Source: Collodictyon triciliatum
Taxonomy: Eukaryota
Direction of reading: 5' to 3'
DNA: 33,652 bases
Assembly (NCBI GenBank): GCA_043381765.1
Contig: JBHJMP010000901.1
Span: forward strand, 1 to 33,652
The notes under the pieces are model-generated. The model was not told where the DNA came from, made no database searches, and saw only the letters and a program-made list of their open reading frames with translations. The translations under genes and the position numbers were made by a program. This document shows positions 2,666 to 27,951 of this stretch, piece by piece. How positions within the stretch are numbered: the stretch's first letter is position 1; each line of letters opens with the position of its first letter.

Positions 2666-5600
2666 TCAAAACATCTCATCATCTTCGTCAAAAGCACAAA
2701 AGAGCTCCTCAGCCACAGCGAGTTCCCTTCATGAGGCACAATTTTTAATATTTTTTTAAGTAGTAAAAATGTAGAATACATACTACGTCTTTTTTTTTTT
2801 GCAGAACATTACATGTTGTTGCTATATATTATTGAGATTTCATAGATACCTTTCCATTTCTTGCCTCTTTACATGGTCTCGATGATATCCTAATATCCAT
2901 TCATGGAGTAAATCACAGGGTTCTGTAGAATTCCTATTCGCCAAGCAATTGGGTTATGCAAGCTTATACACCATACAGGATGTTGAGCCAAATTCACTTT
3001 ATTCTTCACTTAATCTTTTACAAATAGTATAAAAGCGAATGACTAACAAACGAGCATTACAACTCATCTATCACAATATTTTTTTATTTAATCAATCATC
3101 TTGTAAAAAAAGAAAAAGAAAAGACCTATCAGCGTATTTTAAAAAGGGTGGGTAGAGTTGTTCTAACCTCTTTTTTGCCTGGTGATTGAGAGCCAGATCT
3201 GCGTAAAATGAACTCGGTTGCTTATCATCAATTTTGTTATACTCCAACCAAACAGTGACTGCATCCATGTAGCTTCCAGTCTTGACAAGATGCAAACAGT
3301 AATTGTAATTGATTTCACAGTTCCCTGGCGGATTAGAGGCCAAATATTTATTTCTTCTCTTGACAGTAAAAATGAATGAATTCGTAAGTTAGAAATTAAA
3401 TAGAAAAATCAATCAACGCACCTTTGTGTTTCTCCCAACTTGCCCTTAAATGAGCGTCCCCAAGAACATCACCGATGGCCTTCAAACACAGAGACTTATT
3501 CAACAAGGTTCTGGCCTTAGCATAGGAAGAAAATTAAAAATAAACAGGGATGATGTTCTTATATCTGAAAATAATTCCATAATATGAATATGACGAGATG
3601 AATTTGTTTGTATCAATTAAATGGATAGATTGTACTGTCAGGAATATTTGAGAATACGGGTTTGATAGATCATATGAATGGTTTACCGATATTTCACTGC
3701 GGCATTGTTTGGATGTAAAAATGTTTATATTTGCATCGATTATTTTTGGAAGGATATGAGCCTTTTCTGCCCATATATTTCCACGAAAGCTTTCGCCCAC
3801 ATCCTCAACTTTCTCAATAATGTCCAATATCTCCAAAACACGTTCCAGCTTTTGCAAAGCATCTTGATAGCGAAAGAGTTGAATGAAAGCATCTGCCAAT
3901 AAAGTATGCGCCACCACATCGAAAGGATCATATCTGATTATGTAAAAAAAAAAGAAGTTATTTTGGATATTTAGGTGAATATCCTTTTCACTATGTGGGA
4001 ACCTTGTCTAGATAAGTCAAATAATTACTCTAATAAGCAGTTGCAGTAACGAATCGCTTCATCTGCACGCTGACAGCGCAGCAGGACAAATGCAAAGTCT
4101 CGAATAATTGTAACCTGCTTAGATAGAGTAAACGGAAGCAGAATCTACAGAGAAAATGATGTAAACTTTATCTAGTATTATTCCTGGCATCCAACTAAAC
4201 AATGATTCATTAAATTTCAACAATTTGACATCTCTTATAAAGGGGATGGGTTCATATAGCTTGAAGCTGGATTCTACCTGTTTCTCAGTTTGCTCTTCTT
4301 TCTCGTAACTTCCTGAGGGATTCTGAACACAATCAAATAGTGTCCGGTAGTGGTAGAGTGATGATTCCCATTCGCCTGCCTCTTGATAAACCACAGCACT
4401 AAGCAAATGCAGTTCACACATGGTTGGAATAGGATGGTGCTTTGACCTCTCAATTTCTCCGTTCGGTAGAATAAAGTATCTCGACGAAAGGCTGGGTTCA
4501 CTCAACAGCCTTGTGTGTGACTGAGGGAAGCGAGAAAGAGGAGTGAAAGAAAATCGGCTAAAATGGTTCTAGCAATAAACATGTCAAGGTTTTATAATGA
4601 TGCCAACATTTTTTATGCATAAAAGAAAAACCTGTAAAATTAATTCCACGATACTGGTGCACACTTTAACATTTTTGGCTGATTTGTATTCGTACAGAAT
4701 ATTATATAGGGGAATAATAAAGTTTGGGTTGGCCTATTGAAATATAATATTAACCGATTGTCATGTTTTCATTATTATTTCTTTTTCTTCATTTTTTTTA
4801 AGAAAGGTAATTGAGAATCATAAAAGTGTATCACATGTTAATGAAAGACCTTAATTGCCCTTTGATAGAGAGAAACAGCCTCCTTGGGCTCACCCTGCGT
4901 GATTGAGCCCTGTCAGGGATACAATTGATAAATAGATTTCGATCTGTTGACGCTATTTCTTACCTTGATTGATAATATCGCTCCGAGAATGTTGATTACT
5001 TCTGCTGTCCCGCCAACCTTTTGGTCATAATCTGAAAGCAAGACAGCACACATGTCATACTGTTCATAACTAAATGCCGAAATACCTGTTGATGTTCCAT
5101 GAGTGTGATTTGATTTAAATAATTAAAAATAAGATAAATTGCATATATGAAAAATTGTTCCTTTCCTAGGGCCAGATTTCTGGCTACACGAACTTAAAAA
5201 AATAATAAAGAAAAAAAAGAAGGGGTATTAGATGTTTACCTATGTTGAGGCGTACTCTGTACAACTCTGCGATGTTTTCTGGTACATATGTCAAGAATTG
5301 AAACACATTATAGTTTTTACTGCAAATAATCGACAGTAAGATGAGTGTCGCTTTTGATAAGTGCTGGCAGCCGAAAGTGGCTTGGGTGCACAATTCAACT
5401 ATCGGACTCAAATCCAAGATATCTGTTTGGGACAAACGCATCAAACTAATGATACATAGTGCCACGATATTTTCAATAATCGATAGTGCTGTATATGTGC
5501 TAGAGTCAGATGAATGCCCTCCCATCTTTTGGTAGATACAAAGGCACAGCATCTGCGACAGTTCGAGGGACTGAACAGAATAGTTCATATGGGACACTCT

Positions 5601-7265
5601 GATTCTGGGTGTCACACGCAAGAACATGGAGCGCAGTTTATGGTCTGAGGTGATGCAATCGATAAACTCTCTCATGACCACATCTAAACTGTAAGCATGG
5701 TTATCTTGTGCAGAGGCTAGCATCAGACAGGACAAGATAAAATGAAGCTTTGGGATTGTTCTGCAGCCAGTCATTTTTTCTACAGAATATATTATCAAGA
5801 ATTCAGACACACTGGGCCTTCTTAAACTCATGATATATATGTGTGTATCAGTAAATATTTGTTTGCAGAAAAAGCTGAACGCGAAGCAGCACCTCGCATC
5901 AAGTGAATCCCGGTTCGGGTGTCGGATTTTCCAAGCACCAACATATTTTGGGCTGACGGAGCCTGCATTGAGACCGAATTATGGGTTCATTAAGCTGCGA
6001 AGGGTGAATAATGCGGCTTATTTCAGATTTTCATAAAATCATGTGACGTGGTTGAGACATTCATACAGATGCATCCAAGGTAATTCTACAGGATTCGACT
6101 AGGAGACGTAGATCTCTCATATCCGCCAACGACATCAATAATGAAAGCTCTTATTGCGAAATTTCAAAGTTACAGGTTGTGTGGTTTTTTTTTTATTTTT
6201 TATTTTATTGATCTACACGTGCAAATGTGTTAATATGTTCATATGGATGATGCTGTTTTGATTTATAAATATAATGCGGCTGGGGAATGCATAAGATTAA
6301 TCTTTTTTTTTTTTTTTGTTGTTGTTGTTGTTGGTTTCTTTGATACCGTCAAGCGATATCAACTCCAAAGACTCCCGTGCTTGTTTGATACGACCGAGCT
6401 TGTAGAAGTGTGCTGCCCATTTCCATTGATTAAAATTCCCAGCGCATTTTAGAATCATATCCCTCTCCTCCACCGAAAGCTGGAGTTTTATAATAAAAAT
6501 AAAATAAAGGAATGGGATGATAGTTAGGTACATTCTCATAAATGAATTATTGTCCATGATAAAAATAAACAGTATTAGTGGTTTATCAACATGATACTGC
6601 AGAGAAAAGGACATGTAACGGCAGAAAAAACGAGAGGACAGCAGTTATATAAAATCATATAATTATTAACCATAAATGATAAACCATATGGTAGTATGAA
6701 ATATGAAATGTAAAATTATTTTAGCATTTTTCATAAATTAAAATACTAGAATGAAATATATTGTACCAAGGAGAAACAAAGAAACAAATGAACAAAGAAA
6801 CAAATGAACAAAAAAAACAAAGAAACAAAGAAACAAAGAAACAAAGAAACAAAGAAACAAAGAAACAAAGAAACAAAGAAACAAAGAAACAAAGAAACAA
6901 AGAAACAAAGAAACAAAGAAACAAACAACCTTCTCCACTCCTGCGAGCCATGCTTCCATTCTGAGGGCACCGTCTTGTGTAAAGAATTTTCCTATCCTTT
7001 CCTTTTCCTTACCTTGCAACAGCAAATACCGCAAAGAACCGGGACACTCGCTGTTCGCTTCTGAGTCCGACTGGTTTCCTGGCTGCCCAAGTTTTGCGAG
7101 AGACTCAAAGAGGCCGGTCACAAACAGAAGACTCTCGAATGAGCCGCACACAGAGCCGGAATCCTCGGCGTTCGCATCGGCTGACTTGTCGACATCAGCC
7201 CCGTACTCACTCGTCAGCCGAAGCCAATCGCTCCACAGGCGACGGAGTTGTGCGCAGGATTCCAT
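2666..7265 (-). CDS. Uncharacterised TPR-containing protein, ~800 aa, ~14 exons (approx. 7265-6930, 6479-6347, 6149-6067, ~5963-5894, ~5780-5240, 5085-4964, ~4894-4850, 4520-4167, 4114-4029, 3933-3687, 3515-3422, 3324-3125, 2933-2850, 2726-2666)
   Basis: Minus-strand ORF fragments join by frame-consistent GT-AG introns from MESCAQLRRLW to ...FDEDDEMF-TGA. TPR-like segments span the junctions: AEVINILGAILSIK|GEPKEAVSLYQRAIK, VVAHTLLADAFIQLFRYQDALQKLERVLE, INYNYCLHLVKTGSYMDAVTVW. Exons 4-5 and 8 have alternative possible boundaries, and the region could be two genes. Confidence 0.6.
6771..6926. repeat. Microsatellite (GAAACAAA)n in intron 1 of the TPR gene
   Basis: 8-bp unit repeated ~18 times with a few variants; it produces the spurious FLCFFVSL / NKETKKQR ORFs. 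Confidence 0.95.
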
Positions 7266-7739: not shown

Positions 7740-8537
7740 TTAGTCCACGTTCTGAAGCGGATCGATTGTTTGGGACTGGGCGTATTGGTTCACGGCGTTG
7801 GCGGCATCTTTGGCCATCTGCTCGATCTTTTCGATAGAGACGGACTTGAGAGGCATTATCTTTGGCTTGCACAGGATCTCGTTCAGGTTGGCCTTTTCAG
7901 AGAAGACCAGACCAGCCTTGATGTCGGTTTTTGGGAGCGAAGAGAGAGGCAGAATAATCGAGACGGACAAAAAACAAAAAAGAGAAAAAGAGAAAAAGAG
8001 AAAAAAAGAGAAAAAAAGAGAAAAAGCAAAAGGAAAAAGAAAAAGAAAAGAAAAATGAAGAGAGTGAGCATATTGCGTGTAGTCAACATTCTTTTAATAT
8101 TTTGCTCTGTTCTATTCACGTTTTGTGGATCGTTAGATGTGGTTAGCCGTTATGATCAGCAAACCTTGGGAAGAACTTCGCGGAAGCCACTGGAATCTCG
8201 CAATGCAGGGCCCTGGGTGTATCAAAGGAAGGTAAACTTCTCTACTCAATTTTGTGGCATGGAAATAAATCAAATCGAAAAATCGAAAAACCGAAAGCAA
8301 AAAGCAAAAAGCAAAAAGCAAAAAGCAAAAAGCAAAAAGCAAAAAGCAAAAAGCAAAAAGCAAAAAGCAAAAAGCAAAAAGCAAAAAGCAAAAAGCAATA
8401 AACAAAAACACAAAAACAAAAACAAAAACAAAGACAAAACAAAGTTAAATTATAATTAAGCCCTCACGTTTCAATAGTGTAAGGCTTCAGATCTTTAGCC
8501 TTAGTAAAACTCTTACCTTCCCAGACGTATCAGCCAT
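7740..8537 (-). CDS. BBIP1: BBSome subunit BBS18 / BBIP1 (BBIP10), 81 aa; exons 8537-8517, 8212-8165, 7916-7740
   Basis: Spliced product MADTSGK|GPALRDSSGFREVLPK|AGLVFSEKANLNEILCKPKIMPLKSVSIEKIEQMAKDAANAVNQYAQSQTIDPLQNVD*. It matches the BBIP10 signature I recall from human BBIP1 (FREVLPKxG...LCKPKxxPLKSxxxEKxExM). Donors AAG|GTAAGA and AAG|GTTTGC, acceptors CCCAG and TCAAG, all phase 0. Confidence 0.9.
8294..8398. repeat. Microsatellite (GCAAAAA)n in BBS18 intron 1
   Basis: 7-bp unit repeated ~14 times, followed by a degenerate (CAAAAA)n tract. Confidence 0.95.
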
Positions 8538-9266
8538 ATTCTTTGAGTTCTCGACCGTGTGTTCCGATTCTGGTTTCTGGCGCTGTGTGCAGTCTGGCTT
8601 TGTTTTTGCTTTGGATCGAGAGTGCGCGAATTGTGCGAATTTCATACAAACAGTTGCATTTGGTTTGGTGTATTATGTACCGTAAAACTTACACGGACGA
8701 ATGGAATCCAGATTAATTTATCCAGGAATTTCCAGTTTGGGATATTTCAACGGAAAAGCCGTTACTAAGGCGACAGAAAATTCAGTGAAAACCAGAAATT
8801 CAAAATAAATCGAAATAAATCGTGATAAATCGAAATAAATCAAAATATGTCGTGATCCCGAACCGAGATCAATCACTATAGAAGAAAAAGAGATCAGTAG
8901 AGTTGCATCGAATTAGTGTCAAGGAAAGGCTGAAGAACTTATGAGACCACCCACCTGACCGCCATCTTAATAAACCCAAGGAATTTGCCCCTGAAAGAAT
9001 CCACCAAAACTTGCCAAACCCCGTCCACTCTCCCAGATCGCGAAGCAAAGGCCGCCTTTTTTTTTTTTTTTTAAAAAAAAAACAAAAACAAAAAACAAGC
9101 TCCTTCCATTTCTGCGCTCGTCACTAACAGGGTTTGTTGCTCTTTGGCTGATTCGAAACAAAGTTTCTCACTCCCTCCATTTGGCTCCATAGTCACGCCC
9201 GATCCCTTGTTCTGCACCTTTTTTTTTCCCAAGCGATACTCAACCTCTTACCCTCCAGACTTGACT
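8538..9266. promoter_or_regulatory. Divergent (bidirectional) promoter region shared by BBS18 and the dynein heavy chain
   Basis: ATGs at 8537 (-) and 9267 (+) point away from each other, with no credible ORF between them. Confidence 0.75.
8761..8774. promoter_or_regulatory. Candidate RFX-binding X-box GTTACTAAGGCGAC
   Basis: 14-bp imperfect palindrome fitting GTYRCY-NN-RGYRAC on both strands (reverse complement GTCGCCTTAGTAAC); ~225 bp from the BBS18 ATG and ~490 bp from the dynein ATG. Confidence 0.55.
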
Positions 9267-12200
9267 ATGGAAGAGAATCGAGCGCCTCGTATTACCCTAG
9301 AGGACCGACGGGTTCAATGGCTGCGGAAAGCGGTACTGGTCTTTAATCTATTTTATTATTATTCCCTTCGAGTTGTTGAAGGTCATAGACTTCTTTCGGT
9401 TTCTTTTATTTTTTCTCTTGTGACCTCATCTCTTTTAATTGCGACCACCGGGGAAAATTATTTTTATACATCATCGGACCTATTACTCTGTTTCCTTATC
9501 AAATCTACTCTAGGCTTGTAGCTTCCTCAACATCTATCCATACGCATTCGACGAGATGTTTAAACGTGGAGGAAATGGCCCAGCAAGCCCGATGGATGTT
9601 CTCTCTATGTTTCTTGACAACGCTTCCGCTATGACAATATTCTTCAGTGCCATTAAAGATGACGGTAACAGACATAATTATGTTACTAGAATCTGAATCC
9701 TACAAATCCTACGAATCCCAATTTTTTTTAAAATACCTCACCAAAAAATTAAAATAACGATAACAACCATGGTATGATTGCTATTTTTGATTGCCTTGAC
9801 ATTACTCTTGCATTTGCTAGCCAAGAAAGAGATTCTGAAACTGGAACAGGACATCCGCGCAGTCGAGGGTAACCAAAACTCGGATGACCATGCGCAAGGC
9901 GAAAACAGCGGGATGCGCCGTCGGAAGGTGAGTTTTCTGCGATTCTCGATATCCAAGCACAAAGTGCATCTATCTAATTAATCGTGTGGATTGGTTACTT
10001 TACAATTCCACCCATTAAATCAAACCGAATAATCCACCACAAAGGATGATACAATGGCACACGCTGTCATGCAGATACACACAATTCTTCCAGACAACAA
10101 TGGGCCCACAACGTATTTTATCCGTAACTTTGAAAATGCCATACCTAATGAAAGTAAGAACCCTTCATATTACAAAGTGATGCCAAACTTCTCTTTTACA
10201 ATTACATAGTTCTTTGTAATTATTTTGTTTGCCTATGGACTCATCAGACGATTGCAATCCATTCATGTAATTGGCACACTTACTCAATTTGTGCATGCTT
10301 AGTTGACCTATCACCGTACATTGAAGTTGGACTCTTCGTGGGCAACTACATCTCTATGCTAGAGCAGTCTATCACACATATTTATGGACCATTATTCAGT
10401 ACTTTGATGCAAAGAACTTCTGTGAGTCTTTCATTATTGCTAACAGGATAATAACCCGCTGTTCTTTTTTTTAAAAAAATAAAAATAAAAGACAAGTATA
10501 CATGAAATTTGCTTACATGAATATAAATAGGGTGACAGCCTAGACTCTGAGCCGAATATTTTGGAGCTGCATCTATCTGACACACTCAGAAACGAATTCT
10601 TATCCAGTACATATTAAATTTAGTTTCATTTACACGCTAAAGAATGCTCCAATCATGCACATTCGGCTTGAAGCACGGCATAAACTCATTCTTCTCAATA
10701 GATCTCCAAAAGTTTTCGTCTCACGTCACACATACAGTGCAACAAGTCAACGGAGATGTCAAGCTTAATATTCCGGAGATTATGATAACGAATCCTGCCA
10801 CCGCTGCGAAGGACTACGAGGTAATATGCAATGATATACAGGTGGATGACCATATAGGAGCCTAGTGTTCAATCTACGTACCCAAAACGATCAATCTTTT
10901 GGATTGTAGTAAAAATATTGAAGGTTTTGAACTACATGTATGTGATATATTAGATCGTCAGTGTTTTGGAGCAAGCGGGAGAAGAATGGACTGCATCGAT
11001 ATCTCAAGTCATTGAGCATCAATCCCACAATCTCTCCACAAAGAAGGTTACTTTGCCTTTCGCTCACCCAAATACTTCCGCATGCACCACCCTTGAGCTC
11101 ACATTAGTCGATTACACAACCTTTTACAGAAAGAAGCCGCAAGTAAATAAGCACTCATTAAACCGCCAATTACTTCATCTGATGGTTAGGGCCCCATGGC
11201 CGAAGTTGAGTACTGGAGAGCTCGTGCGTCAGCTTTCTCTACCATCTACGAACAATTAAACATGCCAAACGTTAAGATGATGATCAACACACTTAAAGCT
11301 GCAGACGCTGAAATGCTTACTGCCTATGAGCATCAGTACAAGGAACTGAGTAGTCACTATATGGTTGCCAAGGTATATACTTACATATCCGGGTTCCATC
11401 GCTTCTTCTGTATATATTTCGTGCAGAATCGCTGAGAAACGATAAAATATAGATAAAAGGCATTAATTCGATGGACTAATAATAAACAAACAAACAAAAA
11501 AAATAAAATTCAGGACAACGTCAAATTTCTGTCTACACTTGAGCGTCACTTCAAGAATCTATCGCAAGGTTCATTACTGACCATCCAAGATACACTGCCA
11601 TCCATGATGAATGCGATCAGAATGGTATGAAGCGAATGTTTCCTTCCAGCATAACTGATTCATATGAGGAATGATTTCGCTATTTTACGTATGCGGATTA
11701 ATAATTCTGATATATTTCATAGGTGTGGATTATATCGAGGCACTACAACAATGACGAGCGCATGGTCCCACTGATGGAACGCATAGCTCATGAAATTGCC
11801 TCCAAAGTTGCCTCTGTTATTACTCCTCTCAATGTAATTCTTCGAGCACCACCAGCTGAGGCCAAGCGAAAAATTAGCGAGGGGAAATCTGTCCTTGAAA
11901 AATGGAGAGAGGTCATTGAATTATTATTTTTTTAAACAAGGAGCTTATCATAACCTTTTCTATCATGATTCACAACAATATTCTGATACAACATCGAGAA
12001 AAGATAAATTCGTACTCAAACAATATGTTCTGGGTTATGAACTCGTGCAGACATACTTTGCCGTTCGCGAAAAAATTGAGCAAAGTGGGCGAGATGCCCG
12101 CTGGGAATTCGACAAGCGCAAGCTTTTTGAAAGGACAGATTATATGGCTGCTCGTTGTGCAGACCTTCTCGAAGTAACCCAAGTCCTGGAACAATTCTAC

Positions 12201-15200
12201 AATCTTCTTGGGCCAGAGTTGAAAGGTTTCTTTCAATTTATTTTCATTAAACTAAAATCTAGCAAATTGTGAGTATCCATTTTGCATAATTTTTTTTACA
12301 GTATGTCCGTTCAAGTAGTACCATATGTCTTCGTTTTTCATCTATAATCCAAGATCTTGAATTTTCATGCAGCCGTCACTGGAGATTCTCAGAGAATCGA
12401 CCAAGTATTGAGCAGAGTGGAAGGGCTAATTCTCCCAATCGAGTCCGTTCCCTTCGATATATTCGATAAACGATACCAAACAAGGTTTGAGTGGAAATAA
12501 TCTCGGCTTCATGTGCTGTACGACAATTTTATGCCCTTTGCTCATGATGTCGTCACTGTCGACGACATACTCAAAATATGTAACATACGTAGTATCTCAT
12601 ATTTGTTTGTTTTGATATCAACACCATTAATGATCTTTTAAAGAGAGAATCACCTCTAATCACTCTATGCTATCCTACCTAGCTGGGAGACTGTGATGAG
12701 CAAATTCCATGAGAATGTCGCTCAAATCGAAGACATGACAAAGCAGTTCATCGACGCATCCTTCAAGAAACTACGTTCGGCTGAGGGTGCTTTTGACCTT
12801 TTGCTTAAATTTAAAACATTGCAAAGCAGAACAGTCATCAACCAACAAATGATGCAAAAGTTTAGCGATATCCTCGCTCAATACTCCAAGGAACTGGATG
12901 CCGTCAAGTTTGTAGTGACAACCCTCGAAATATTTCGTCATTTTAACTTCATATGATCAACGAAGAAAAAAACCCCAATACATATGTCTTCCTTCTCTTT
13001 GCAGGGAGCTATTTGATTCGAACTACCAGAATCCCCCGTGTACCAGAAACCAGCCGCCGGTGGCTGGCGCAATCAACTGGTGCCGTTCACTTTTCCATAG
13101 AATCAAAAAGCCGATGCTCAGATTCATGACAGCTGATGGTATACTCTCTCTCTCTCTTGCTGGAAGTATTGATCATATATTCTATTTTATGTTTTGCAGA
13201 ATTCGTAATTGGATGCTACCCACATTATTGGTAGTGGTGTACGTTTTTATTAATCTATTGGTCTTTTTGTTGTTAGAAATGATGATGACTCCCGAAGGCA
13301 AGGCTGTACGTGCAAAATACATTCAAGTTGCTAGTGGCATGAGAGACTATGAAAATAAGGTAAACTGTTGGGATTCTTTTCTTTCAGACATTGCCTCTTA
13401 ATTGCTATACAGAAGCCTGTTTGCGATTACATCAAGCAAGTGCCAATGAACAAAATTTTATGCAGCTTTTCAATGAATGGCGTGAAACTGTCGACGCTAT
13501 CGCTATGGCACACCTCAAATCAAATATTCTGTCTGAGCTGAACGCAAAAGTATTTGTCAACTTCGATGAAAGTCTCACACGTCTTATCCGAGAAACAAAG
13601 TACTTGGACAGAATGGGGTAAGAATAATAATCAATTAATTTCTTTTTTATATTCTATTCCAGTTAACATTGCATGAACAAAAATACATCTCTTGCTCATC
13701 TCATCTATCCTCAGGCTGAATCCCATTCCCGAAATGGCTCTTAATGTGACACTTCAAGAAGAGAAGTACCATACAAACGTCGAAAACCTGAAGGTTTGTA
13801 CCTGTCTACACTTATTCGCTAGTCGTTGATGTTTTCACCGAAGGGTAAACATGTTGTCGATTCCTTTCATCACCGTTATATTTTTAGTCCATGTTGGCAA
13901 GTTATCACGGTGTTCTGGCTCTTCTTTCCAAACCCGAGGAAAGGCTCCTATCGGATCACATCAAGAAACTCAATCAATCTCTGGAGCCTGGAAAGAAGAC
14001 TCTGAATTGGAACTCCCTAGGAATTCCGCCCTTCATCGGAGATTGTAACAAGGTTGCCACAAAATTTTATTATTATTTCCTCTTACACTCACCCAAATAA
14101 TCATGCCTTTTTTATTCGATTCAAAGTACCCAAAAAATTAAAGCTAATATACATATGTTGTCTCAGTCAATAAATGAGTTTCAAACACTGGTGAATCAAG
14201 TTCAAAAGAACGCCTCAATTATCTCTGGAGTTATTGACCACATGAAAACGTCGACATTGGTAAGCCATGTCAATTACAGGAATCCATAAATCATTATTCG
14301 TCACTGATTTAATCGAGCGAAAGAAGAAAAAAAAAAGAAGACTAAGCTGAATGGCAATTCAGGTTCATGAACCTCCTAGCGAAGGTGTGGACATCTCCGA
14401 GATTCAAGACTTTTATGAATACATGGAGAAGACTCGCATTTCAACCCTCGATGTAAGTGATTGTGGCCTTTTCGTTTGATCCCTTCATGATTTATTTTAA
14501 ATCGATTAACATTTCGTACAAACTGTTTATTCAAACACTTAAATAAATAACATGTGATATGATATATGGCTTTATTTTCTCTAGACTCTCGTCAAAAAGT
14601 ACCGGACCATTGGGCCTTTGCTTGGTAAGATTGAAGAATTTGTTGCAGATACAAATACTGGAAAATCACCAAAATTGAGAGAATATTACAGTTTCTGGGA
14701 ACGCAAGATCTTCCATGCTTTAAACAGAGTAGGCGGAGCTTAACTGACTCTAAGATTTGAATCACATCCCTTTTTTCCTTTCCTTTCCTTTCCTTTCCTT
14801 TCCTTTCCTTTCCTTTCCTTTCCTTTCCTTTCCTTTCCTTTCCTTTCCTTTCCTTTCCTTTCCTTTCCTTTCCCTTCCATTTCTCAAACATTTTTTTTTT
14901 TTTGTACAACAGATGATTTTGGCTGGGATGACTTCGTTCCTCCACCTATTACGCTTTTCAAAAAGACCCGGACTGTCTGGCAAGCGCCCTTTGTTCAAAG
15001 TTGTTGTAAGCCTGAGCGCCCCTGAAATTATCGTCACTCCTCAATTCACGGATATTCATAAGGTATCACCGTTCTTTCGGCCACTATTAATCGGTCTCCA
15101 AAGTTTGGTGGTCCACACAAAGAAAGAAAAAAAACTTTGTATATATTATCCTCTGAAAACAAGGGCCCACAACCAGCTGGCATACCTACCTAATATGCAT

Positions 15201-18200
15201 ATCTTGTAGATCATCGGAAAGCTAGTCAAGAACACTGTTGAAAGTGCAAAACAATTTGTCCGCTGGATGGACGGAACATGTATCGAAACACCTCCCCAGT
15301 TTGTTACGGGTGACGACGAGGAACCTTACATGTTCACATTTTACTCCGATGTCAGTGCAAATCCACAGGTAAATACTCTTCTGTAGTATGCCCAGCGTGA
15401 GAAACATACCTGTGTTAATTTCCTAAAAAAAAAAAAAAATCTTCCCTCTGATTATAGTAAATTTGAATTGATCTCTACTTGACAGGTTGTTCGCACCATG
15501 CTTTTCCTCAACCAAAGCCTGCAAAAGACTTTCTCTACCATCAATAAATACTTGGAGGGATGGCGTAAATATAGACCTTTGTGGAAGAATGACAAAACAT
15601 CGACTCTGGATAAATTCACTCAAAAGACTCCTAACTGCGTGGCCTATGACGCGAAGCTTACCTTTTATAGCAAATTAGTCCAAGATGTCGATGCTCAGGT
15701 TTATTTCATTTGACTTCATTACTTCATTACTTAATGAACTTATTATCAAACCCGCTCCATTTTCTACGTAAAAATACATCAACCTTCATCCAAAATCAAA
15801 ACTAATGGAGGCAAAAAAGGTTCGCGAAAAAGACATCGATTTTGTTCGTCTTGACCTGGCGTCTCTTGTTGCATCCATCAAATCTGAAGCCTCTTCCTGG
15901 GTTGTGGCCATTGGAAAGCTTCTCACGGACTCTGCGTTTCCCAAACTTGTTGAGTTGCACCAACACTTCGATTCAGTTCTGACCGATATTTCGAAACACC
16001 CAGAGAACTTAACTGAGCTGAAGCATGTGCTGAATGTCATCGACCAACTTCAAGGCCAAGTTTGTTCGCCCATGACTGCATATAGCACTCTAACCAGTCC
16101 ACCTATCATCCACACTTGAACTTTAAAGACGCACAAGAATAGTACATCTACTAATCTGCGAACTGTTAAAAAACAAAAACAAACAATATTACTATTAGGC
16201 CTCTGACATTGAACTGAAGATTGCCGACATCGTGGAGAGATATCGAACACTAAAGCTATTCAAACTTACGATTCCAGAAAACCAGGTATCAAGAAAATGC
16301 AATGCCAATACCAATAATACCAATAATAATTGACCACTTTTCAGTAATCGCATCTTCCTTTCTCTTTCATGGTAACATGACCAAAATTTTATGAATTTGT
16401 TGCAAAGCTGTCTCTATCTGAGACCCTTGAAGACAAATGGGGTCGTCTTATTCTGTCAAGCAAGAAACTAGATGCCCAACTTGTCTCCATCAAGAGAAAA
16501 TTTACGGAGGTGAAAATAAAAAGCGCAAAACATGCCACATGCCGTTACTGATCTAATTATTACGTATCCCACATATATCCTAAAACAAACATACATATTA
16601 CACCCAAAGGTCACCAAAAAAGAAGTGGATGAGTTCCTCCAAATTACAGTGCTGTTCAGAAAGGAGTTTTCTGAAGCAGGCCCAGCGTCTGTAGAAGATG
16701 ACCTTGATAGGGTATGCCAGTCATCCCTCACAACCGCGGCACCATACGATGTATTTTGACCTTGGAACCTAATCAACAATCACTCAACTATAGGGAGTCG
16801 AACTTTGCAAGAAATTCAACACAGAACTAGGCAACCTCAATCAACGACGTGACGAGTTGGTTTTGGCTGAGAAACTCTTCAACATCCCAATCACAGACTT
16901 TTCAACCCTCCAGTCTGTTGAGCAAGAGTTGGCCGCCCTCGACAAAGTCTATGCTCTCTACGCCGAGCAGAAGGTTGCTAGATTGGTGTAAACCATTATG
17001 ATACCATTTGATATGAAAATTCACGCCATCCCAATTCATATTGCAACAATCTCTAATGTTATCATCTAATATGCTACTTCGCTTCAGGAAACCCTATCTA
17101 AATGGTCATCCATGCTTTGGGCCGATTTGGATATTCAAGTTCTGAATAAAGGAATCGAAGTTTTCACCTTGAGATTGAGGAAGCTTCCCAAGGAACTAAG
17201 GAGTTTGTCTCCGTACCAAGTCGTTGAGCAGAGAATCAACTCATTCAAAGGCAATCTTCAATCATCATAATATAATTTATAGATATTGATGACAATACGT
17301 ATCCACCAAGAACTGCTCGCTGTCCAATTGACACATGCAACTGCACCCACAGATTCCATCCCGCTGATGAGCGACCTCAAGAACGAAGCCCTGCGTGAGC
17401 GTCATTGGAAGAAACTTATGCAGGCCACAAACAAGTCATTTGACATGAATCCAAAGACCTTCACACTAGACAATCTGTTCGCCATGGAACTTCACAAGTT
17501 TGCCCTTATCATTTCGGAAATCACTAGTGGTGCTATGAAGGAATTGAACATCGAACAAGGCATTCAGGTTCTCGCTGAGACGTGGAGAAACAAAAAATTT
17601 GATATCAAGAGGTACTCAAAGGGAACCGAGGACCGCGGATTCATCTTGTGTGGTATCGACGATATCACCCAACTTCTTGACGACAATTTCATGAATCTCA
17701 TCACCATGTCCGCGTCACGGTTTGTGGCTCCTTTCCTTCCGCAGGTGCAGGAGTGGGAGAAGAGACTCTCTTTGATTGGAGAGGTTACTGAAATTTGGAT
17801 GCATGTCCAACGAAAGTGGATGTATCTCGAGAGCATTTTTGTTGGCTCTGATGACATCCGCCTCCAGCTCCCTGAAGAGGCGAAACGCTTTGATCGTGTC
17901 GACAAAGCATTCAAAAAGGTCATGGTGGAGACTGCAAAAAACACCCTTGTACTCGAGGCTTGCCATGCGGAAGGACGACTTCAACTCCTTCAAAATCTTG
18001 CAAGCGAACTTGACCTTTGTCAAAAGAGTCTTAGCGACTATCTGGAAACCAAAAGAAACTCCTTCCCGCGCTTCTTTTTCATCTCGGACGATGAACTGCT
18101 TAGCATTCTTGGCACACAAGATCCAAAGAATGTCCAAGAGCACATGATTAAGCTCTTTGACAATGTGCTGGGCCTCAAATTCGGCAGAAATGCCAAAACT

Positions 18201-21200
18201 GTGATTGGGATGTCGTCCACTGAAGATGAATACTGCGAGTTCCGAAACCCGGCGAGCTCTGAAGGCAATGTAGAGCACTGGATGTCTGGTGTTGAAGCTG
18301 AAATGCAAAAAACCATTCGCCAGATAACAAAGGAAGCCGTTTTCCACTATCCTAAAATCAAGCGTACAGATTGGATATTCCAATATCTAGCCATGGTTGT
18401 CTTGGTTGGCAGCCAAATCTGGTGGACTTGGGAGGTTGAAGATGTCTTTAACCAAGTCCGCGAAGGGAACAAACTGGCCATGAAGCAACTGTACACAAAG
18501 CTGTCCAAGCAAATCGACGATTTAGTGGAACAAGTCCGCGGAGATTTGACCAGCAACGACCGCAAGAAATACAACTCCCTCATCATCATTGATGTGCATG
18601 CTCGAGACGTCGTCGATCGCTTTGTCCGTGACAGTATACTAGATGCACGCGAATTTGAATGGGAAAGTCAGCTGCGTTTCTATTGGAACCGCACCCAGGA
18701 TGACATTATCGTGAACCAGTGCACTGGCACATTCTCCTTTGGCTATGAGTATATGGGAATCAACGGCAGACTGGTAATTACTCCTCTTACAGACCGTTGC
18801 ATTATGACCCTGACCCAGGCACTGTCCATGAAACTAGGAGGCTCTCCGGCAGGCCCAGCCGGAACCGGAAAGACTGAAACGGTCAAAGATCTGTCAAAGG
18901 CTCTAGCTCTTCTCTGTGTGGTTTTTAACTGCGGGGAGGGTCTCGACTACAAAGCCATGGGCCGAATCTTTTCCGGTCTGGTGCAGTCAGGCGGGTGGGG
19001 ATGTTTTGATGAATTTAATCGAATCGATGCAGAGGTGCTATCTGTCGTCTCCGTACAAATCAAGACCATCCAGATTGCCCTTCAACACGGATGGAAAAAG
19101 TTCCAATTTGAAGGCTCTGAAATCCCCTGCGACCCAAAGACAGGTATTTTCATTACTATGAACCCCGGCTATGCCGGACGCACCGAGCTACCAGACAATC
19201 TCAAAGCTCTCTTCCGTCCCGTTGTAATGGTTGTGCCAGATTTGGAGCTCATTTGTGAGATTATGTTATTCTCTGAGGGATTCAACACTGCTAAAGTACT
19301 TGCAAAGAAAATGACTGTTTTGTATAGACTGGCTCGAGAACAATTGTCGAAGCAGTACCACTACGACTTTGGCCTGCGTGCCCTCAAGTCTGTCCTGGTC
19401 ATGGCCGGTTCCCTGAAACGTGGCAGTCCAAATCTGCCCGAAGACGTGGTGCTTATGAGAGCTCTTCGCGACATGAATCTCCCAAAGTTTGTGTTTGAGG
19501 ACGTCCCCTTGTTCCTGGGCCTCATCAACGATCTTTTCCCTGGACTGTCATGCCCCCGCGTGCGGTATCCCCAGTTCCACGATGCAGTCGAGCAAAGCTT
19601 GAAAAAGAATGACTACCAACTTTTACCCGAACAAGTCGATAAGGTCATCCAACTTTATGAGACCATGCTGACCCGACACACAACCATGATAGTCGGCCCG
19701 ACAGGTGGAGGAAAAAGTGTGGTTCTAGAAACATTGGCGAAAGCCCAAACACACCTCGGCCTCCATACAAAGCTCTACGTGCTGAATCCAAAGGCGCAAC
19801 CTGTTTCCGAGCTGTACGGAGTTCTGGATCCAAACACTCGCGACTGGACCGATGGATTGCTGTCAAACATATTCAGAGAAATCAACAAGCCGACCGACCG
19901 CAAAGAGGCTCGTTACATCGTGTATGATGGAGATGTCGATGCTGTCTGGGTCGAAAATATGAACTCTGTCATGGATGACAACAGGCTCCTGACCTTACCC
20001 AATGGAGAGCGTATCCGTCTTCAGAAACATTGCGCCATGCTTTTCGAAGTGGCTGACCTTCAGTATGCATCTCCAGCCACCGTATCACGCTGTGGTATGG
20101 TTTACCTCGACCCAAAGAACCTCGGCTTCCGTCCGTTCTTTATCAAATACCTGACCACGCGCGCAAACTCTGTGGAACAGGAGATTCTCAAGAGTCTTTT
20201 CGACAAGTATGTCCCCAACTTGATATCATATGTCCTGGAGGGCGTGTCGGAAGGTGTGGTGACAAAGCGCCTAAAGTCCGTTATCCCCACACATGGTGTC
20301 AGTATGACGGCCCAGCTGTGTTCTCTATTGGACGCTATCATTCCGACTGATTCAACCACGAATGACCCGTCAGTTCTGGAGTCTGTTTTTGTTTATGCGC
20401 TTGTTTGGTCCATCGGTGCGCCGCTTCTTCAAGACGGGCGAGTCAAGTTCGACGCCCAGCTCAAGAAAATCAGCGACTTGATTATGATAGAAAATCCCAA
20501 CGTGTCTGTCGGCCCTGGGCAACTACCGACCTATCTCCCTACACTCTTTGAGTTCTACTTTGACATCAAACAAACAAAGTGGGTGCCATGGACCTCGCTT
20601 GTCACCTCCTTTGTCTCCCCACCAGACAAAAAGTTTTCATCCATTCTCGTGCCAACTGTAGACACTGTTCGCATCACATGGTTGCTCGAGTCTATGATTC
20701 GCGTCCGTCGTCCAATCCTGTTTGTTGGAGACTCAGGAACAGCAAAGACTGTGACTATTCAAAACTATCTCTCGCAAGCTGGTCACGAAGCGTTTGCCGT
20801 TTTGAACCTGAATTTCTCGTCCCGTACAAGCAGCCTTGACGTCCAGCGCACAGTTGAAGACAACGTTGAAAAGAGAACAAAGGACACATATGGCCCACCA
20901 CCGGGAAAGAGACTTTTGGTGTTTGTTGACGATGTGAACATGCCCCTTGTGGATACATATGGAACCCAGCAACCCATAGCTCTTTTGAAGCTCATCATCG
21001 AAAGAGGCGGGCTGTATGACCGAGGAAAAGACCTTAACTGGAAGTATATTCGCGACTTACAATTCATATCAGCCATGGCACCTCCCGGTGGAGGACGCAG
21101 TGCCGTCGACCCTCGCTTTGTGTCGCTGTTCTCTCTGATCAATGTCACATTCCCAAGCGACGAATCTCTTACTCGCATCTATGAGTCCATCCTCTCTGCG

Positions 21201-24200
21201 CATGTAGAGCACTTTTCAGAGTCTATCCAAAACATCGGAAAGCGCTTGACGCCTGTTATGCTCCAACTGTACCGCGCAATTGTGGAGCAACTTCCACCAA
21301 CGCCCTCTAAATTCCACTATATCTTCAACTTGCGCGACCTCAGCAGAGTATATGAAGGAATGTGTCTGGCAACCATCGACAAATTCGCCACGTCGTCCTC
21401 TTTTCTGCGGCTATGGAGAAATGAGTGTCTTCGCGTGTTCCACGATCGATTGATTTCGATGGAAGACAAGAGCTGGATGCAGGAGAAAATTAATGAAATT
21501 ATCAAAGCCAACTTCGAAGAGGATTACGATGCCGTCACTGCCGACCCTATTCTCTTTGGTGACTTTAGAAACGTAATGAATAAGGAAGATGCCTCTATTT
21601 ATGAGGACCTTCAAGACTACGACCATATCAAGCCCATTTTCGAGGAGGTGCTGGAAGATTACAATTACCACCACAAACCTATGAACCTGGTTCTTTTCCA
21701 GGATGCTCTGGAACACCTTACCCGCATCCATCGAATAGTTCGACGAAACCGTGGACACGCACTCTTGGTTGGATACGGTGGTAGCGGCAAGCAGAGCTTG
21801 ACTCGTTTAGCTGGCTATGCAGCAGGGTACGACATATTTGAAATTGTGCTTTCGCGAGGATACGGCGAGGTTGAGTTTCGAGAGGATTTAAAAAAACTGT
21901 ACCGACTGCTCGGTCTTGAGAATAAGAAAATCATTTTCCTGTTTACCGATGCGCACGTTGCCAAAGAAGGATTCCTGGAATTCATCAACAACATGTTGAC
22001 TTCAGGAATGGTTCCAGCGCTTTACCCTGACGACGAAAAGGACTCTATCATCAACAATATCCGTGATGAGGTGGTCACCAAGGGAATTTTTGACAGCAAG
22101 GAAAACTGTTGGAATTTCTTTATCAATAAATGCCGGGATAATCTACATATCGTATTATGTATGTCTCCTGCTGGGGAATTACTGCGTCGCCGCTGTCGCA
22201 ACTTTCCAGGCCTTGTCAATAACACGGTGATTGATTGGTTTACTCTGTGGCCTGAGCAAGCTCTTTATTCTGTTGCCAGTGTCTTTTTGGCGGAGGAGGA
22301 TTTGCCTGCCCGCAATCGCACAGACATCATCAACCACATGGTCATGGTCCACACGTCTGTTGTCAAGTTCAGTTCAGACTACGAAGCGCAGCTTAGGCGC
22401 AAAAACTATGTCACGCCCAAGAATTACTTGGATTTCATCAACAATTATCGCAAATTTTTGCGGGAAAACAGAAAGCGCATTGGCGATTTGACCACCCGTC
22501 TCGACGGAGGCCTCCAAAAGCTGATTCAAGTCGGAGCTGAAGTCGAGTCCATGAACGAAGACCTCGAAAAACAGCAAGTGATTGTAGCTGAAAAGACAAA
22601 CGCTAATGAGCAACTCCTGGAAATGATTTCGCAGAGAACAGCGATTGCCGAAGCGAAGCAGCAAATTGCCTCAAAGAAAGAAGAGGAGCAAAATATTATG
22701 AAAGAGAGCATCATTAAGGAAAAGGCTGAAGCTGAGCTGGCCCTGGAAGCCGCCCTTCCAGAACTCATGGCAGCCACAGAAGCTCTAAATACACTCACAA
22801 AGAACGATATCACTGAGATTCGTACCTTTGCTCAACCCCCTATTGCCGTCCAGGCAACTTGTGAGTGTGTCGCTATCATCCAACAAAAAGATACCCAATG
22901 GAAAAGCATCAAGGCGATGATGACGGCGCCAGACTTTTTGGATCAGTTAAAAAACTTCAATAAGGATTTGCTGAATGACAGGCTTATTCGCCAAGTGCGT
23001 GAAGTGATCAAAAAGAGGTCCCTTTCGGTCGAAGACATGGAAAACATCAGTAAGGCTGGCACAGGTCTCCTGAAATGGGTCTTTGCGATGGTCAATTACT
23101 ATGAAGTCGCAAAGACTGTGAATCCAAAGAAGCTTGCAGTCGCGCAGGCTGAAAAAAGCTTGAAAAAGAGCGAAGACGAATTGACGCGCACAAAGGCCGA
23201 GTTGCAGCAACTGCAAGATGAGCAAAACAAGCTCAGCCAACAGTACAGCCAAGGGACACAAGAACAACAGGAACTCAAGGAAAAAACAGAAATCATGCAA
23301 AAGCGTTTATCTGCAGCTCGCCAGCTCATCTCTGGTCTTGGTACAGAAAAGGAGCGATGGACTAAGGACATGGAAGATTTGAAGGTGACTCGACAGAGAC
23401 TTGTTGGAGACTGTTTGTTGGCAGCCGCGTTCCTCAGCTACTCCGGAGCGTTCACTTTTGAATTCAGACACGAAATGGTATACAAACTTTGGTATGATGA
23501 TGTTGTCGAGCGGTCTGTCCCTCTCACGACTCCATTCAAGCTAGAGACGCTTCTGACAGACTCTGTGGAAATCAGTCGCTGGGCTTCCGAGGGACTTCCG
23601 TCTGATGAACTCTCCGTTCAGAATGGTATTCTCACTACGCGCTCCAATCGCTGGCCGCTGTGTATTGACCCACAGATGCAGGCTGTCAACTGGATTAAGA
23701 AAAGGGAAATCAAAAATTCGCTCAAGATTTGCACATTCAACGACCACGACTTTTTGAAGCAGTTGGAACTGGCCATCACGTACGGATTCCCACTTTTGTT
23801 TGAGGGTATCGACGAATACATCGACCCCGTCATTGATACTGTGCTTGAAAAGAACATCACCATTGTGGGGAACCGCAAGTTTATAATGTTGGGCGACAAA
23901 GAGGTAGATTGGGATGACAGCTTCCGTCTGTATTTCACCACAAAGCTCTCCAATCCCAGTTACTCTCCAGAAATCTTTGGTAAGTGCATGGTCATCAATT
24001 ACACAGTGACACAGCAAGGATTACAAGACCAACTTCTGAACGTGGTCGTGGGCTACGAGCGCCAGGATTTGGAACGCCAAAGAATCGACCTGATCAAACA
24101 AATGAGCGAGAATCGAGCCCTCTTAAAGAATCTGGAGGACACCTTACTACAGGAGCTCGCCTCGTCGACTGGCAACATTCTAGACAACCAGGATTTGATA

Positions 24201-26258
24201 GACACCCTTGAAAACACAAAGTCGAAGGCCATGGAAGTGTCCCAGAAACTCGAGCAAGCAGACGAAACTGCCAAGCAGATTGATATCGTTCGTGATGGAT
24301 ACCGTCCAGCAGCCAAGCGAGGGTCCATCCTATTCTTTGTCATGTCCAGCCTCTCTGCAATCAACTCCATGTACGAATACTCTCTAAATTCGTATCTTGA
24401 AATCTTTGAGCAATCGCTGGCTAGAAGCGAAAAGGACATGGTTCTGCTCAGTCGTCTTCGGAACATCATCAATACGCTGACATATAATGTGTACAAATAC
24501 GTGTGCACAAGTCTTTTTGAACGCCACAAACTCATGTTCTCCTTCAACATGTGTGTCAAGATTCTGCAGGGAGATGGTGCCATCGACTCAAATTACCTAG
24601 ACTTTTTCTTGAAAGGAAACCTCTCGCTTGAAAAATCCACCCGGAAGTGTCCCTTCTCCTGGTTTCCTGACCAAGGATGGGAAGACCTGCAGCGACTCAA
24701 CACGATGGCCACTGTGTTTGAAACCATCGTGGACGACATCGAAAAGAATGAAGAAGTATGGAAGCAATGGTATGACTTGGAGACGCCCGAGACGCATCCC
24801 ATCCCCATGAACTATGCAAACACGTTGGACCCCTTCCAACAAATGATGCTCTTAAAGTGCCTCCGAGTGGACCGTTGTTATTGGGCGGTCACGCGCTTTG
24901 TCATTCTCAAGATGGGCGAGAAGTATGTCCGGCCTCCCGTGCTTGACTACCACGGCATTTTTGAGCAGAGCTCGCCCATGTCTCCTGTTGTCTTTATCCT
25001 CAGTCCTGGAGCTGACCCAGCATCCGACGTCTTCAAGCTAGCTGACAAGCTTGGGTTTGGAGGAGCGCGTCTAAAAGTCAGCTCCCTGGGTCAAGGACAA
25101 GGCCCGCAAGCCATGCAGTATTTGGAAGGCGGTGTTGCCCGAGGCCACTGGGTTCTGTTGCAGAACTGTCATCTTCTGGCATCTTGGCTCAAGCAGCTGG
25201 AGAAGTTCCTGGACAAGATGGAGAAGCCCAACAAGGACTTCCGCCTGTGGCTGACCACCGAGCCTACCGAAAAGTTCCCGATTGGCATTCTGCAGCGCTC
25301 TTTGAAGGTCGTGACTGAGCCTCCGACTGGGCTCAAGCTGAACATGACCGGCAGCTACTCAAAGATTTCGGACGAGCAGCTGGACCAATGCCCTCACCCC
25401 GCATTCCGCTCCCTGGTCTATGTCCTTGCATTTTTCCACGCTGTGGTACAGGAGCGCCGCCGATATGGAAAGATTGGTTGGAACGTGCCGTACGACTTTA
25501 ATGAGTCCGACTTCCGTGTGTCCCTTTCGCTGCTGAACACATATCTCACAAAGGCCTACACGAATAACGACAACACGCCATGGGGTTCGCTTCGCTACTT
25601 GATTGGTGAGGCTATGTACGGAGGCCGCGTCACAGACAGCTTTGACCGACGCGTCCTTATCACATACTTGGATGAATACATGGGCGACTTTTTATTCGAC
25701 ACTTTCCAGCCTTTCCATTTCTATGTCAATAAGGACACAAATGTCGACTACAAGATTCCCACACCTGGGCCTTTGGAGAACTATCTGGAAGCAATCTCGA
25801 ACCAGCCCCTGATCAATTCGCCCGAAGTCTTTGGATTGCACCCCAACGCAGAAATAGGGTACTTGACAAACTCTACAAAGGAGCTGTGGCGCAATGTGGT
25901 GGATATGCAGCCGCGTGTTGGGAATGCCGCAGGTGGAATCAGCCGCGACGAGTACATTAAATCTGTTGCCTTGGATTTGCAGACAAGAATCCCAGAGCCT
26001 TTTGACTTGCATCGCACCGCGAAAGTTCTTGGCGAGGGGATAACACCGACACAGGTGGTCTTAATGCAGGAGCTGGAGAGGTGGAATCGACTGGTGAATA
26101 AGATGATTGTGATGTTGAGAGAGCTTCTCAAGGCCCTCGCTGGAGAAATCGGTATGTCGAATGAGCTCGATGACCTTGCAAACTCGCTGTATATTGGTCA
26201 GCTTACGCACTCGTGGAGAAGCCTCGCACCCGACACACAAAAGTCCCTCGGTAGCTTT

Positions 26259-26329
<71 letters not shown>

Positions 26330-27338
26330 CCTAACGATATTTTTAGTTTCTTTGGTGGTCATAATTCACGCTCGACTACAAGCATTTTTTGAAGAAGTGC
26401 ATTTTTTTTTTGGTTTTATTAATAAGGGTGTATTTGTTTGTAGGAAACTGGATGCTTCACTTTGAAAGAAGGCACAAACAGTACGTCGCTTGGATTGAAG
26501 AAGGGGAACCCATTCTCATGTGGCTCTCTGGTCTTCACATTCCCGAGGCTTACCTCACTGCACTGGTTCAAATGACGTGCCGTAAGAATGTTTGGCCGTT
26601 GGATAAGTCTACTCTCTACACTCGTGTAAGTCAATTTTTCTTTTTTCTTTTNNNNNNNNNTTTCTTTTTTCTTTTCTTTTTTCTTNNNNNNNNNNNNNNN
26701 NNNNNNNNNNNNNNNNNNNNNNNNNNNNNNNNNNNNTTTTTCTTTATTTTCTTTTTTTCTGTTGGCATTTATTTGCATTCCATACGCCACAGGTCACAAA
26801 ATACACCAAAATGGAAGAGATTCCCGAAAGACTGGCGTCCGGTTGCTACGTGACTGGGTTATATTTGGAGGGTGCTGCATGGGATTTGTACGTCTCAATC
26901 AAATACATCTTTGTGTTGGTTTTCATGCGAATCTAGTTATCTATTTTACAGTCTCGCCATCGCATCAATCATCCCAGGAAAAACTGCCGGTTGACTCCGC
27001 AGAGACCCAAAGAACTTGTTGTTGAACTCCCCATCATGCAAATCATTCCTGTGGAAATGACGAAACTGAAGTTGCAAAACACTCTGCGCACACCAGTGTA
27101 CACCACACAAAACCGCCGGAATGCTATGGGTGTTGGTCTTGTGTTTGAGGCCGACCTGAACACAGCCGAGCACCCCAGCCACTGGGTTAGTCTTTCTTCG
27201 AGCAGAATCCAATAATAGCACTGAATCATATGACTTTGCTGAGTTTGCTATTTAGCCAGTTGATGCTGCTGTTCTGACTTTTCGTTTTCATCAATACAGG
27301 TGTTGCAAGGGGTTTGCCTGGCTCTCAATATCGAATAA
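9267..27338 (+). CDS. DNAH10: Axonemal dynein heavy chain, inner arm I1/f alpha type (DNAH10 / Chlamydomonas DHC1-like), ~4500 aa, 36 exons
   Basis: P-loops [24 protein letters not shown] and [30 protein letters not shown] and [12 protein letters not shown]; coiled-coil stalk with microtubule-binding domain. Long two-headed-type N-terminal tail ([43 protein letters not shown]). The C-terminus [13 protein letters not shown]...[17 protein letters not shown] is characteristic of the DNAH10 clade. All 35 introns placed in frame; stop TAA at 27336-27338. Confidence 0.92.
14775..14876. repeat. Microsatellite (TTTCC)n in dynein intron 22
   Basis: 5-bp pyrimidine unit repeated ~20 times. Confidence 0.95.
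17251..17352 (+). other. GC-AG intron (102 nt), dynein intron 31
   Basis: Donor AAAG|GCAATC and acceptor CCACAG|AT. Splicing gives [24 protein letters not shown], whereas read-through hits a TAA after a few codons. Confidence 0.85.
17353..26250 (+). other. Single 8898-nt exon encoding the dynein linker, AAA1-AAA6, stalk and part of the C-terminal domain
   Basis: Uninterrupted ORF (track 17286-26465) bounded by acceptor CAG at 17352 and donor G|GTAGC at 26251. Confidence 0.9.
26257..26329. repeat. Microsatellite (TTTA)n in dynein intron 32
   Basis: 4-bp unit repeated ~17 times; it gives the spurious FIYL tail of the 3059-aa ORF. Confidence 0.95.
26652..26736. other. Assembly gaps (N at 26652-26660 and 26686-26736) inside a T/C-rich tract in dynein intron 33
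   Basis: Runs of N flanked by T-rich low-complexity sequence; the coding frame is unaffected. Confidence 0.95.
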
Positions 27339-27675: not shown

Positions 27676-27951
27676 TACCATCGCATCTGCTTCTCGATTC
27701 AATCCTCCTTTGAGTTTTTCCTGTCCTTCTAAGCACAGCAAACGTAATGCGCATCCAAGATTTACCAACCGAACCACCTCGCTGCTACTCAAGTTCTCTT
27801 TATCCTTCGAAACAAAGAAAGAAAAAAGAAAAAAAACAATAACTGTAAATCTTTTATTTCTTCCTGTCTGTGTACCTTTTCACCTCTTGACCCCATAAGC
27901 GCAGTACAGGCCGATATCACTGCCCTGCACGAGACCCAACACAATGAATCA

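Follow-up and report, generated by a model that had tools for sequence, protein, structure and literature searches.

Introduction

In animals, factors of the RFX/DAF-19 type act on cilium genes through X-box sites, and in the choanoflagellate S. rosetta the corresponding regulon is that of cRFXa. It is with this system that we compare a locus from contig JBHJMP010000901.1, of which the whole stretch of 33,652 nucleotides analysed here is referred to as 'the window': the genes for the BBSome subunit BBIP1/BBS18 and for an I1/f-alpha (DNAH10-type) axonemal dynein heavy chain lie head-to-head in it, and an X-box-like 14-mer is located between their start codons. As in the RFX/DAF-19 regulon, a 14-bp match to the restricted X-box consensus stands upstream of a BBSome gene, at a spacing from the start codon that is usual for the C. 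elegans targets as these are described in the literature cited below. Unlike the members of that regulon, the locus belongs to a diphyllatean of the CRuMs, that is, to a lineage outside the groups for which the published survey reports RFX, and the site is a single one. We consider it most probable, at roughly 65%, that the interval between the two genes is an ordinary shared promoter carrying a coincidental X-box look-alike to which no RFX factor binds.

The comparison extends to other described systems. Sites of the X-box type are found outside animals also as those of Crt1/Rfx1-type fungal factors, the role of which is non-ciliary; the fungi in question possess an RFX gene and have no cilia, whereas the present locus is flanked by ciliary genes and belongs to a host for which no RFX has been reported. 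Ciliated protists that employ non-RFX control provide a further parallel. In a 2025 review (PMC12183034), the account of protist factors gives FOXJ1 and RFX as absent from Chlamydomonas, Tetrahymena and Naegleria, and XAP5 as the regulator of some cilium genes of Chlamydomonas; with these organisms the host of our locus has in common that a ciliated lineage for which no RFX or FOXJ1 is reported must nevertheless coordinate its cilium genes. Finally, the locus resembles known head-to-head pairs with a shared promoter in that its genes diverge and have their 5' RNA ends separated by about 400 bp, and differs from them in that both partners are ciliary and in that the pairing is seen in 0 of 21 other BBIP1 loci.

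Results

The initial annotation had described a head-to-head pair of a BBS18 gene and an I1-alpha dynein gene, and this description is borne out by a Pfam BBIP10 match, by the ranking of the dynein scores and by spliced RNA contigs for both gene models (detailed below). The start codons of the two genes are separated by the 729 bp from 8538 to 9266, precisely the interval that had been given, and 9332, which had been taken as the end of the locus, is where the first coding exon of the dynein gene ends. Within the interval, the stretch 8573-8978 (406 bp, GC content 0.39) lies between the outermost RNA-contig ends of both genes and is presumed to be the core of a shared promoter. We thus picture two cilium genes that share a bidirectional promoter region, in a diphyllatean genome that is compact and rich in introns, with both genes probably being transcribed divergently from the ~400-bp stretch between the RNA ends; that 8573-8978 acts as a promoter is suggested by this arrangement. 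The RNA evidence comes from three runs (X1-X3), of which X3 is a freshwater metatranscriptome, and its contigs are no proof of a start, an end or an absence; that none of the three runs covers 8573-8971 was therefore not used as evidence.

For the interpretation of the 14-mer it is of key importance to which lineage the host belongs. The first 1000 residues of the translated large dynein exon were used as a query, and of the 2613 candidates that were scored 2441 proteins passed E<=1e-50. The best match is the protein of Diphylleia rotans (EukProt EP00002) with 93% identity over 1000 residues, followed by chytrid fungi with 71-74% and then by animals and green algae with 67-70%. In a neighbour-joining tree (Kimura distances, 27 sequences, 973 columns), which suffices for judging the sister relation to D. 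rotans and is unreliable for deep placement, the dynein of the window is sister to that of D. rotans in all 200 bootstraps and falls outside animals, fungi and green plants. A fragment of histidyl-tRNA synthetase (HisRS; 1542-2435) likewise finds its best match in D. rotans (60%) and the next one in the red alga Rhodosorus marinus. The remaining HisRS matches listed are mostly nameless metagenome proteins of ~414-430 residues, and the named ones among them are bacterial; this pattern is consistent with an organellar enzyme of bacterial type, in agreement with the initial annotation, which had argued from a bacterial-type HisRS for a non-animal host. Since D. rotans is the nearest relative for both the dynein and the HisRS, the host, a freshwater flagellate, is, as judged from these two proteins, not an animal but a diphyllatean (collodictyonid) of the CRuMs that has clearly diverged from D. 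rotans.

This assignment bears directly on the published distribution of RFX. In the survey part of Coyle et al. 2023 (PMC10530576), RFX DNA-binding domains were compared with EukProt, and of the 539 taxa that belong neither to opisthokonts nor to amoebozoans only 3 are reported to have hits; the three are a rhodophyte, a glaucophyte and an alveolate, with no member of the CRuMs among them, and the authors regard these outliers as products of transfer, convergence or contamination. EukProt includes D. rotans as an entry, which is therefore, by that account, without detectable RFX. Bacteria and plants are stated to be without RFX in the introductory account of Chu et al. 2010 (PMC2873420). Full-text searches for literature on RFX in CRuMs, Collodictyon or Mantamonas returned none, the only co-mentions being in work on choanoflagellate iron uptake. 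Hence the host presumably lacks RFX, and the absence of an RFX gene, which the initial annotation had itself named as a reason for abandoning the idea of an RFX-type ciliary regulon, probably applies as far as the survey of Coyle et al. 2023 goes.

Within the account of Coyle et al. 2023 (PMC10530576), a ciliary role of RFX is documented only in animals and choanoflagellates, the function in ascomycetes is non-ciliary, and the chytrid S. punctatus expresses RFX, yet the promoters of its conserved ciliome are described as devoid of an enriched RFX motif or any other enriched motif.

The X-box-like 14-mer itself is located at 8761-8774 and is assigned to the minus strand; its letters are GTTACTAAGGCGAC on the plus strand and GTCGCCTTAGTAAC on the minus strand. 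The site is upstream of both genes, at 223 bp from the start codon of BBIP1 and at 492 bp from that of the dynein, 127 bp of the latter distance being accounted for by the leader intron. The initial annotation had placed an X-box at exactly this position and had called it a near-perfect palindrome. The motif is confirmed; the palindrome had been overstated, as only 3 of the 7 mirrored positions form Watson-Crick pairs. The palindromic half-site feature of RFX targets is consequently not found in the 14-mer, and according to the Drosophila analysis presented in Laurencon et al. 2007 palindromic X-boxes are over-represented among real targets. That analysis also describes a lone X-box upstream of a gene as no predictor of RFX dependence, in contrast to conservation of the site between species.

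Several properties of the 14-mer weigh against the coincidence that we favour. First, GTCGCCTTAGTAAC matches exactly the restricted consensus RTNRCC N1-3 RGYAAC, the least degenerate one in the consensus set given by Laurencon et al. 2007. Second, the 223 bp to the BBIP1 start codon fall within the 100-250 bp upstream of the coding sequence at which C. elegans X-boxes usually lie according to Chu et al. 2010 (PMC2873420); this holds for BBIP1 only. Third, the centre of the motif (8767.5) is ~8 bp off the middle of the 8573-8978 stretch. Fourth, the strict consensus is rarely met by chance: when sequences were shuffled with their dinucleotide content preserved and those with at least one strict match were counted, RTNRCC N1-3 RGYAAC was found for the 729-bp interval in 105 of 20000 shuffles (0.5%) and for the 406-bp core in 69 of 20000 (0.35%), and the narrower pattern GTNRCC N2 RGYAAC in 15 and 7 of 20000, respectively. 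Fifth, the 14-mer is the sole strict match outside coding sequence in the window. To these may be added that the presumed lack of RFX derives from published BLAST searches in the transcriptome of a relative and not from the genome of the host.

These properties could reflect a true RFX-type ciliary regulon in Diphyllatea, in which RFX or an RFX-like winged-helix dimer would bind the 14-mer and drive both genes. Apart from the exact fit, the low chance rates and the position relative to BBIP1, it speaks for such a regulon that the flanking genes are both ciliary. We nonetheless regard it as unlikely: the EukProt survey, in its published account, reports RFX in no CRuMs taxon; among Amorphea a ciliary role is described for RFX in animals and choanoflagellates only and was not seen in the chytrid; the site is a lone one at the one ciliary promoter in the window; and its palindrome is weak compared with those over-represented in real targets. 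Moreover, very many windows were read in the scan from which this locus was picked, so that a coincidence of 0.5% is to be expected somewhere. The 14-mer is therefore, judged by its letters, a good X-box, and coincidence is improbable (~0.5%) for one given promoter, yet it is a single site. In sequence and position it resembles an X-box for BBIP1, and membership in an RFX regulon cannot be claimed.

The 33.6-kb window contains two strict matches against a shuffle mean of 0.33, and 44 of 1000 shuffles reach two. The other strict match, GTGGCCTCGGGCAAC (25134-25148, minus strand), lies within the large dynein coding exon and is presumably coincidental. Loose patterns were evaluated on the 729-bp interval with 2000 shuffles each, where GTHNYYNNRRNAAC is unremarkable (P=0.081; whole window 1 against a mean of 3.45), as are GTHNYYATRRNAAC with <=1 mismatch (P=0.08; whole window, with <=2 mismatches, 61 against 75.25) and RYYNYYNNRRNRAC (P=0.39); GTHNYYNNRRNRAC yields 3 strand-matches in the whole window against a mean of 5.52. 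Being at or below chance in the window, the loose X-box patterns were dropped as evidence. What remains of the proposed RFX-type ciliary regulon is hence one motif: the proposal is unproven and, on the published evidence, improbable.

The 14-mer is bracketed by a dyad, which leads to another explanation. The arms GAATTTCCAGTTT (8726-8738) and AAACCAGAAATTC (8789-8801) are complementary at 11 of 13 positions, and the dyad as a whole (8726-8801; also designated GAATTTCYRGTTT) has its centre at 8763.5, so that it surrounds the motif almost symmetrically. Conceivably, the 14-mer, possibly together with this dyad, constitutes a working element for another, lineage-specific factor, its likeness to an X-box being incidental. 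No other place in the window contains the arms (2 matches, compared with a mean of 0.52, and 12 of 100 shuffles reaching 2), and ciliated protists without RFX must use different factors, as exemplified in the above-mentioned 2025 review (PMC12183034) by XAP5 in Chlamydomonas. On the other hand, such a pair of arms arises in 29% of 300 shuffles of the core and is thus not significant by itself, and the dyad was noticed after the fact at a single promoter. We consider such an element doubtful, though not as unlikely as the regulon. The presumed promoter also contains a tandem array with a 10-bp period, AAATAAATCG (8797-8856, ~4.5 copies). A DNA run (X4) provides one 39-nt piece on this array, with 5 differences, and no piece over the 14-mer.

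Turning to the genes themselves, the BBIP1/BBS18 assignment is based on the minus-strand translation of 7743-7931, which matches PF14777 (Pfam BBIP10) with E=3.1e-19 and 68.7 bits, compared with a cut-off of 26; the profile score of the small protein thus exceeds the curated cut-off for the family. The gene model on the minus strand comprises three exons encoding 81 residues, with GT/AG at every border. Exon 1 (8517-8572, of which 8517-8537 are coding) carries the start codon at 8537-8535 (MADTSGK) and is represented by RNA contig pieces spanning 8516-8562 (X1) and 8516-8572 (X3). Exon 2 (8165-8212) contributes 16 codons, GPALRDSSGFREVLPK, and its GT donor and AG acceptor were confirmed. Exon 3 (7740-7916) contributes 58 codons and the stop codon, overlaps the Pfam BBIP10 match and has a checked AG acceptor. 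The joint of exons 1 and 2 is seen in X1 and X3 contigs that stop at 8516 and carry on with letters equal to 8182-8211, and the 5' leader extends at least to 8562 in X1 and at least to 8572 in X3. At 8562 the X1 contig terminates in 19 adapter-like letters foreign to the window, which we take to resemble the template-switching oligo of SMART-type libraries and which would then mark the 5' end of the mRNA. Intron 1 harbours a 7-bp array (AAAGCAA, 20 copies) at 8265-8440.

The class of the dynein was assessed by scoring the 2986-residue exon translation against chains of solved structures in the PDB. The Chlamydomonas chain 8glv_Cn (4625 residues) scores 4205 bits, mammalian DNAH10 chains 4165-4167 bits and a chain named IDAf-alpha 3319 bits; the DNAH2/I1-beta chains, which represent the next class, follow with 2412-2468 bits. 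Consistently, homologues are named in their sources either dynein-1-alpha of the I1 complex or DNAH10. The product is accordingly the I1/f-alpha inner-arm heavy chain (DNAH10/Chlamydomonas DHC1), to which class it is nearer than to any other. The gene occupies 9267-27335 on the plus strand, as delineated by the PDB ranking, tblastn and RNA joints. With the 4534-residue D. rotans protein as query, tblastn yields 22 segments over 9517-27335, with 86.8% identity in the motor and 33-95% in the tail.

The dynein gene is preceded by a non-coding first exon (8979-9131, plus strand), i.e., a 5' leader that is defined by an X3 contig piece and extends at least as far 5' as 8979; a T16/A-rich tract occupies 9057-9088 within it. 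A leader intron of 127 nt follows (9132-9258, plus strand), for which a GT..AG joint from 9130 to 9258 is present in X1 and X2, and then the first coding exon (9259-9332, plus strand), with the start codon at 9267, RNA contigs and checked borders. Introns are distributed unevenly: ~20 or more short exons in the 5' third of the gene are followed by a lone 9.2-kb exon at 17283-26465. Twelve GT..AG introns are skipped by X1 and X2 contigs that are >=99% alike to the window, and these contigs therefore represent spliced cDNA.

Two irregularities of the dynein gene may be mentioned. In one X3 contig, the 21 letters upstream of 8979 have no match in the window at <=3 mismatches, and no AG precedes 8979; these foreign letters could be explained by an exon located elsewhere, by a chimeric contig or by divergence between strains. 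Near the 3' end of the gene, runs of X in the translations of open reading frames (ORFs) at ~26650-26760 correspond to N bases or an assembly gap in an intron-like stretch.

A scan of metagenomes with BBIP1 exon 3 gave 371 matched stretches, from which 21 loci were confirmed. Their best identity is 73%, so that no close relative of the window's BBIP1 is among them, and a dynein gene adjoins BBIP1 in none of the 21, only 6 of which extend >=3 kb upstream. One of these loci (L010:1-8789, BBIP1 exon at 5933-6058) contains eight distinct strict X-box sites (RTNRCC N1-3 RGYAAC) in 8.8 kb, while the other 20, ~88 kb in all, contain 0 or 1 each. Read by eye, the ORFs of L010 include a hydrolase-like gene and RNA-polymerase-like exons; the locus may stem from an RFX-using organism or contain a motif-carrying repeat.

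The window as a whole is eukaryotic, AT-rich (GC content mostly 0.34-0.49) and full of short-period tandem arrays (19 entries), and similar arrays flank most genes. A hidden RNA gene was considered and rejected, there being no Rfam match at gathering score and no tRNA. So was the gene at 5184-5978 as a second ciliary gene: ESM Atlas offered only weak leads of the HEAT/ARM type (best 0.82) and no ciliary assignment, and Pfam gave none. The plant-type leucine-rich repeat (LRR) protein, the other gene that the initial annotation had cited against an animal host, does carry the plant-type N-terminal cap LRRNT_2; this large protein (29929-33159, minus strand, and 27917-29215, minus strand) further comprises many LRR units and DUF7630, and the ORFs downstream look hydrophobic.

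Discussion

Our preference for a shared promoter of the ordinary kind, in which the X-box look-alike is a coincidence, follows from the lineage of the host, the distribution of RFX, the literature, the single site, the statistics of the loose patterns and a pairing of genes that is unseen elsewhere. Cilium genes of this lineage would then be coordinated by some non-RFX system. The weight of the contrary evidence can be estimated roughly. From the negative surveys of CRuMs, apusomonads and breviates we draw a prior of a few percent for a diphyllatean having RFX, and we put the chance of such an RFX controlling cilia at about a third, which combine to <1%. A strict X-box would be encountered at this promoter with a likelihood of ~0.5% by chance and of perhaps 10-15% under a regulon, and the posterior for a true RFX-type regulon is hence of order 10-15%. 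The more general proposition that Diphyllatea possess an RFX-type factor driving cilium genes via X-boxes, with the BBIP1/I1-alpha-dynein promoter as one target, appears to us quite improbable.

The two proteins are plain new members of known families from a poorly sampled lineage, and the interest of the locus lies in the stretch between their genes. How the several hundred genes of the cilium are switched in protists beyond animals and choanoflagellates is largely unknown, and the timing of the recruitment of RFX to cilia is raised as an open question in the discussion of Coyle et al. 2023 (PMC10530576). The CRuMs, being the reported sister group of Amorphea, hold a key position for this question. 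If the 14-mer were indeed an RFX site, the link between RFX and the cilium would have to be placed no later than the divergence of CRuMs from Amorphea, far predating the ancestor that animals share with choanoflagellates, and the published view of RFX as confined to opisthokonts and amoebozoans would need revision. If it is a coincidence, as we favour, the locus would serve as a warning that an X-box of strict consensus arises by chance in about 1 of 200 promoters of this size, and it would still provide an RNA-supported model of a promoter shared by a pair of cilium genes in a lineage that has hardly been studied.

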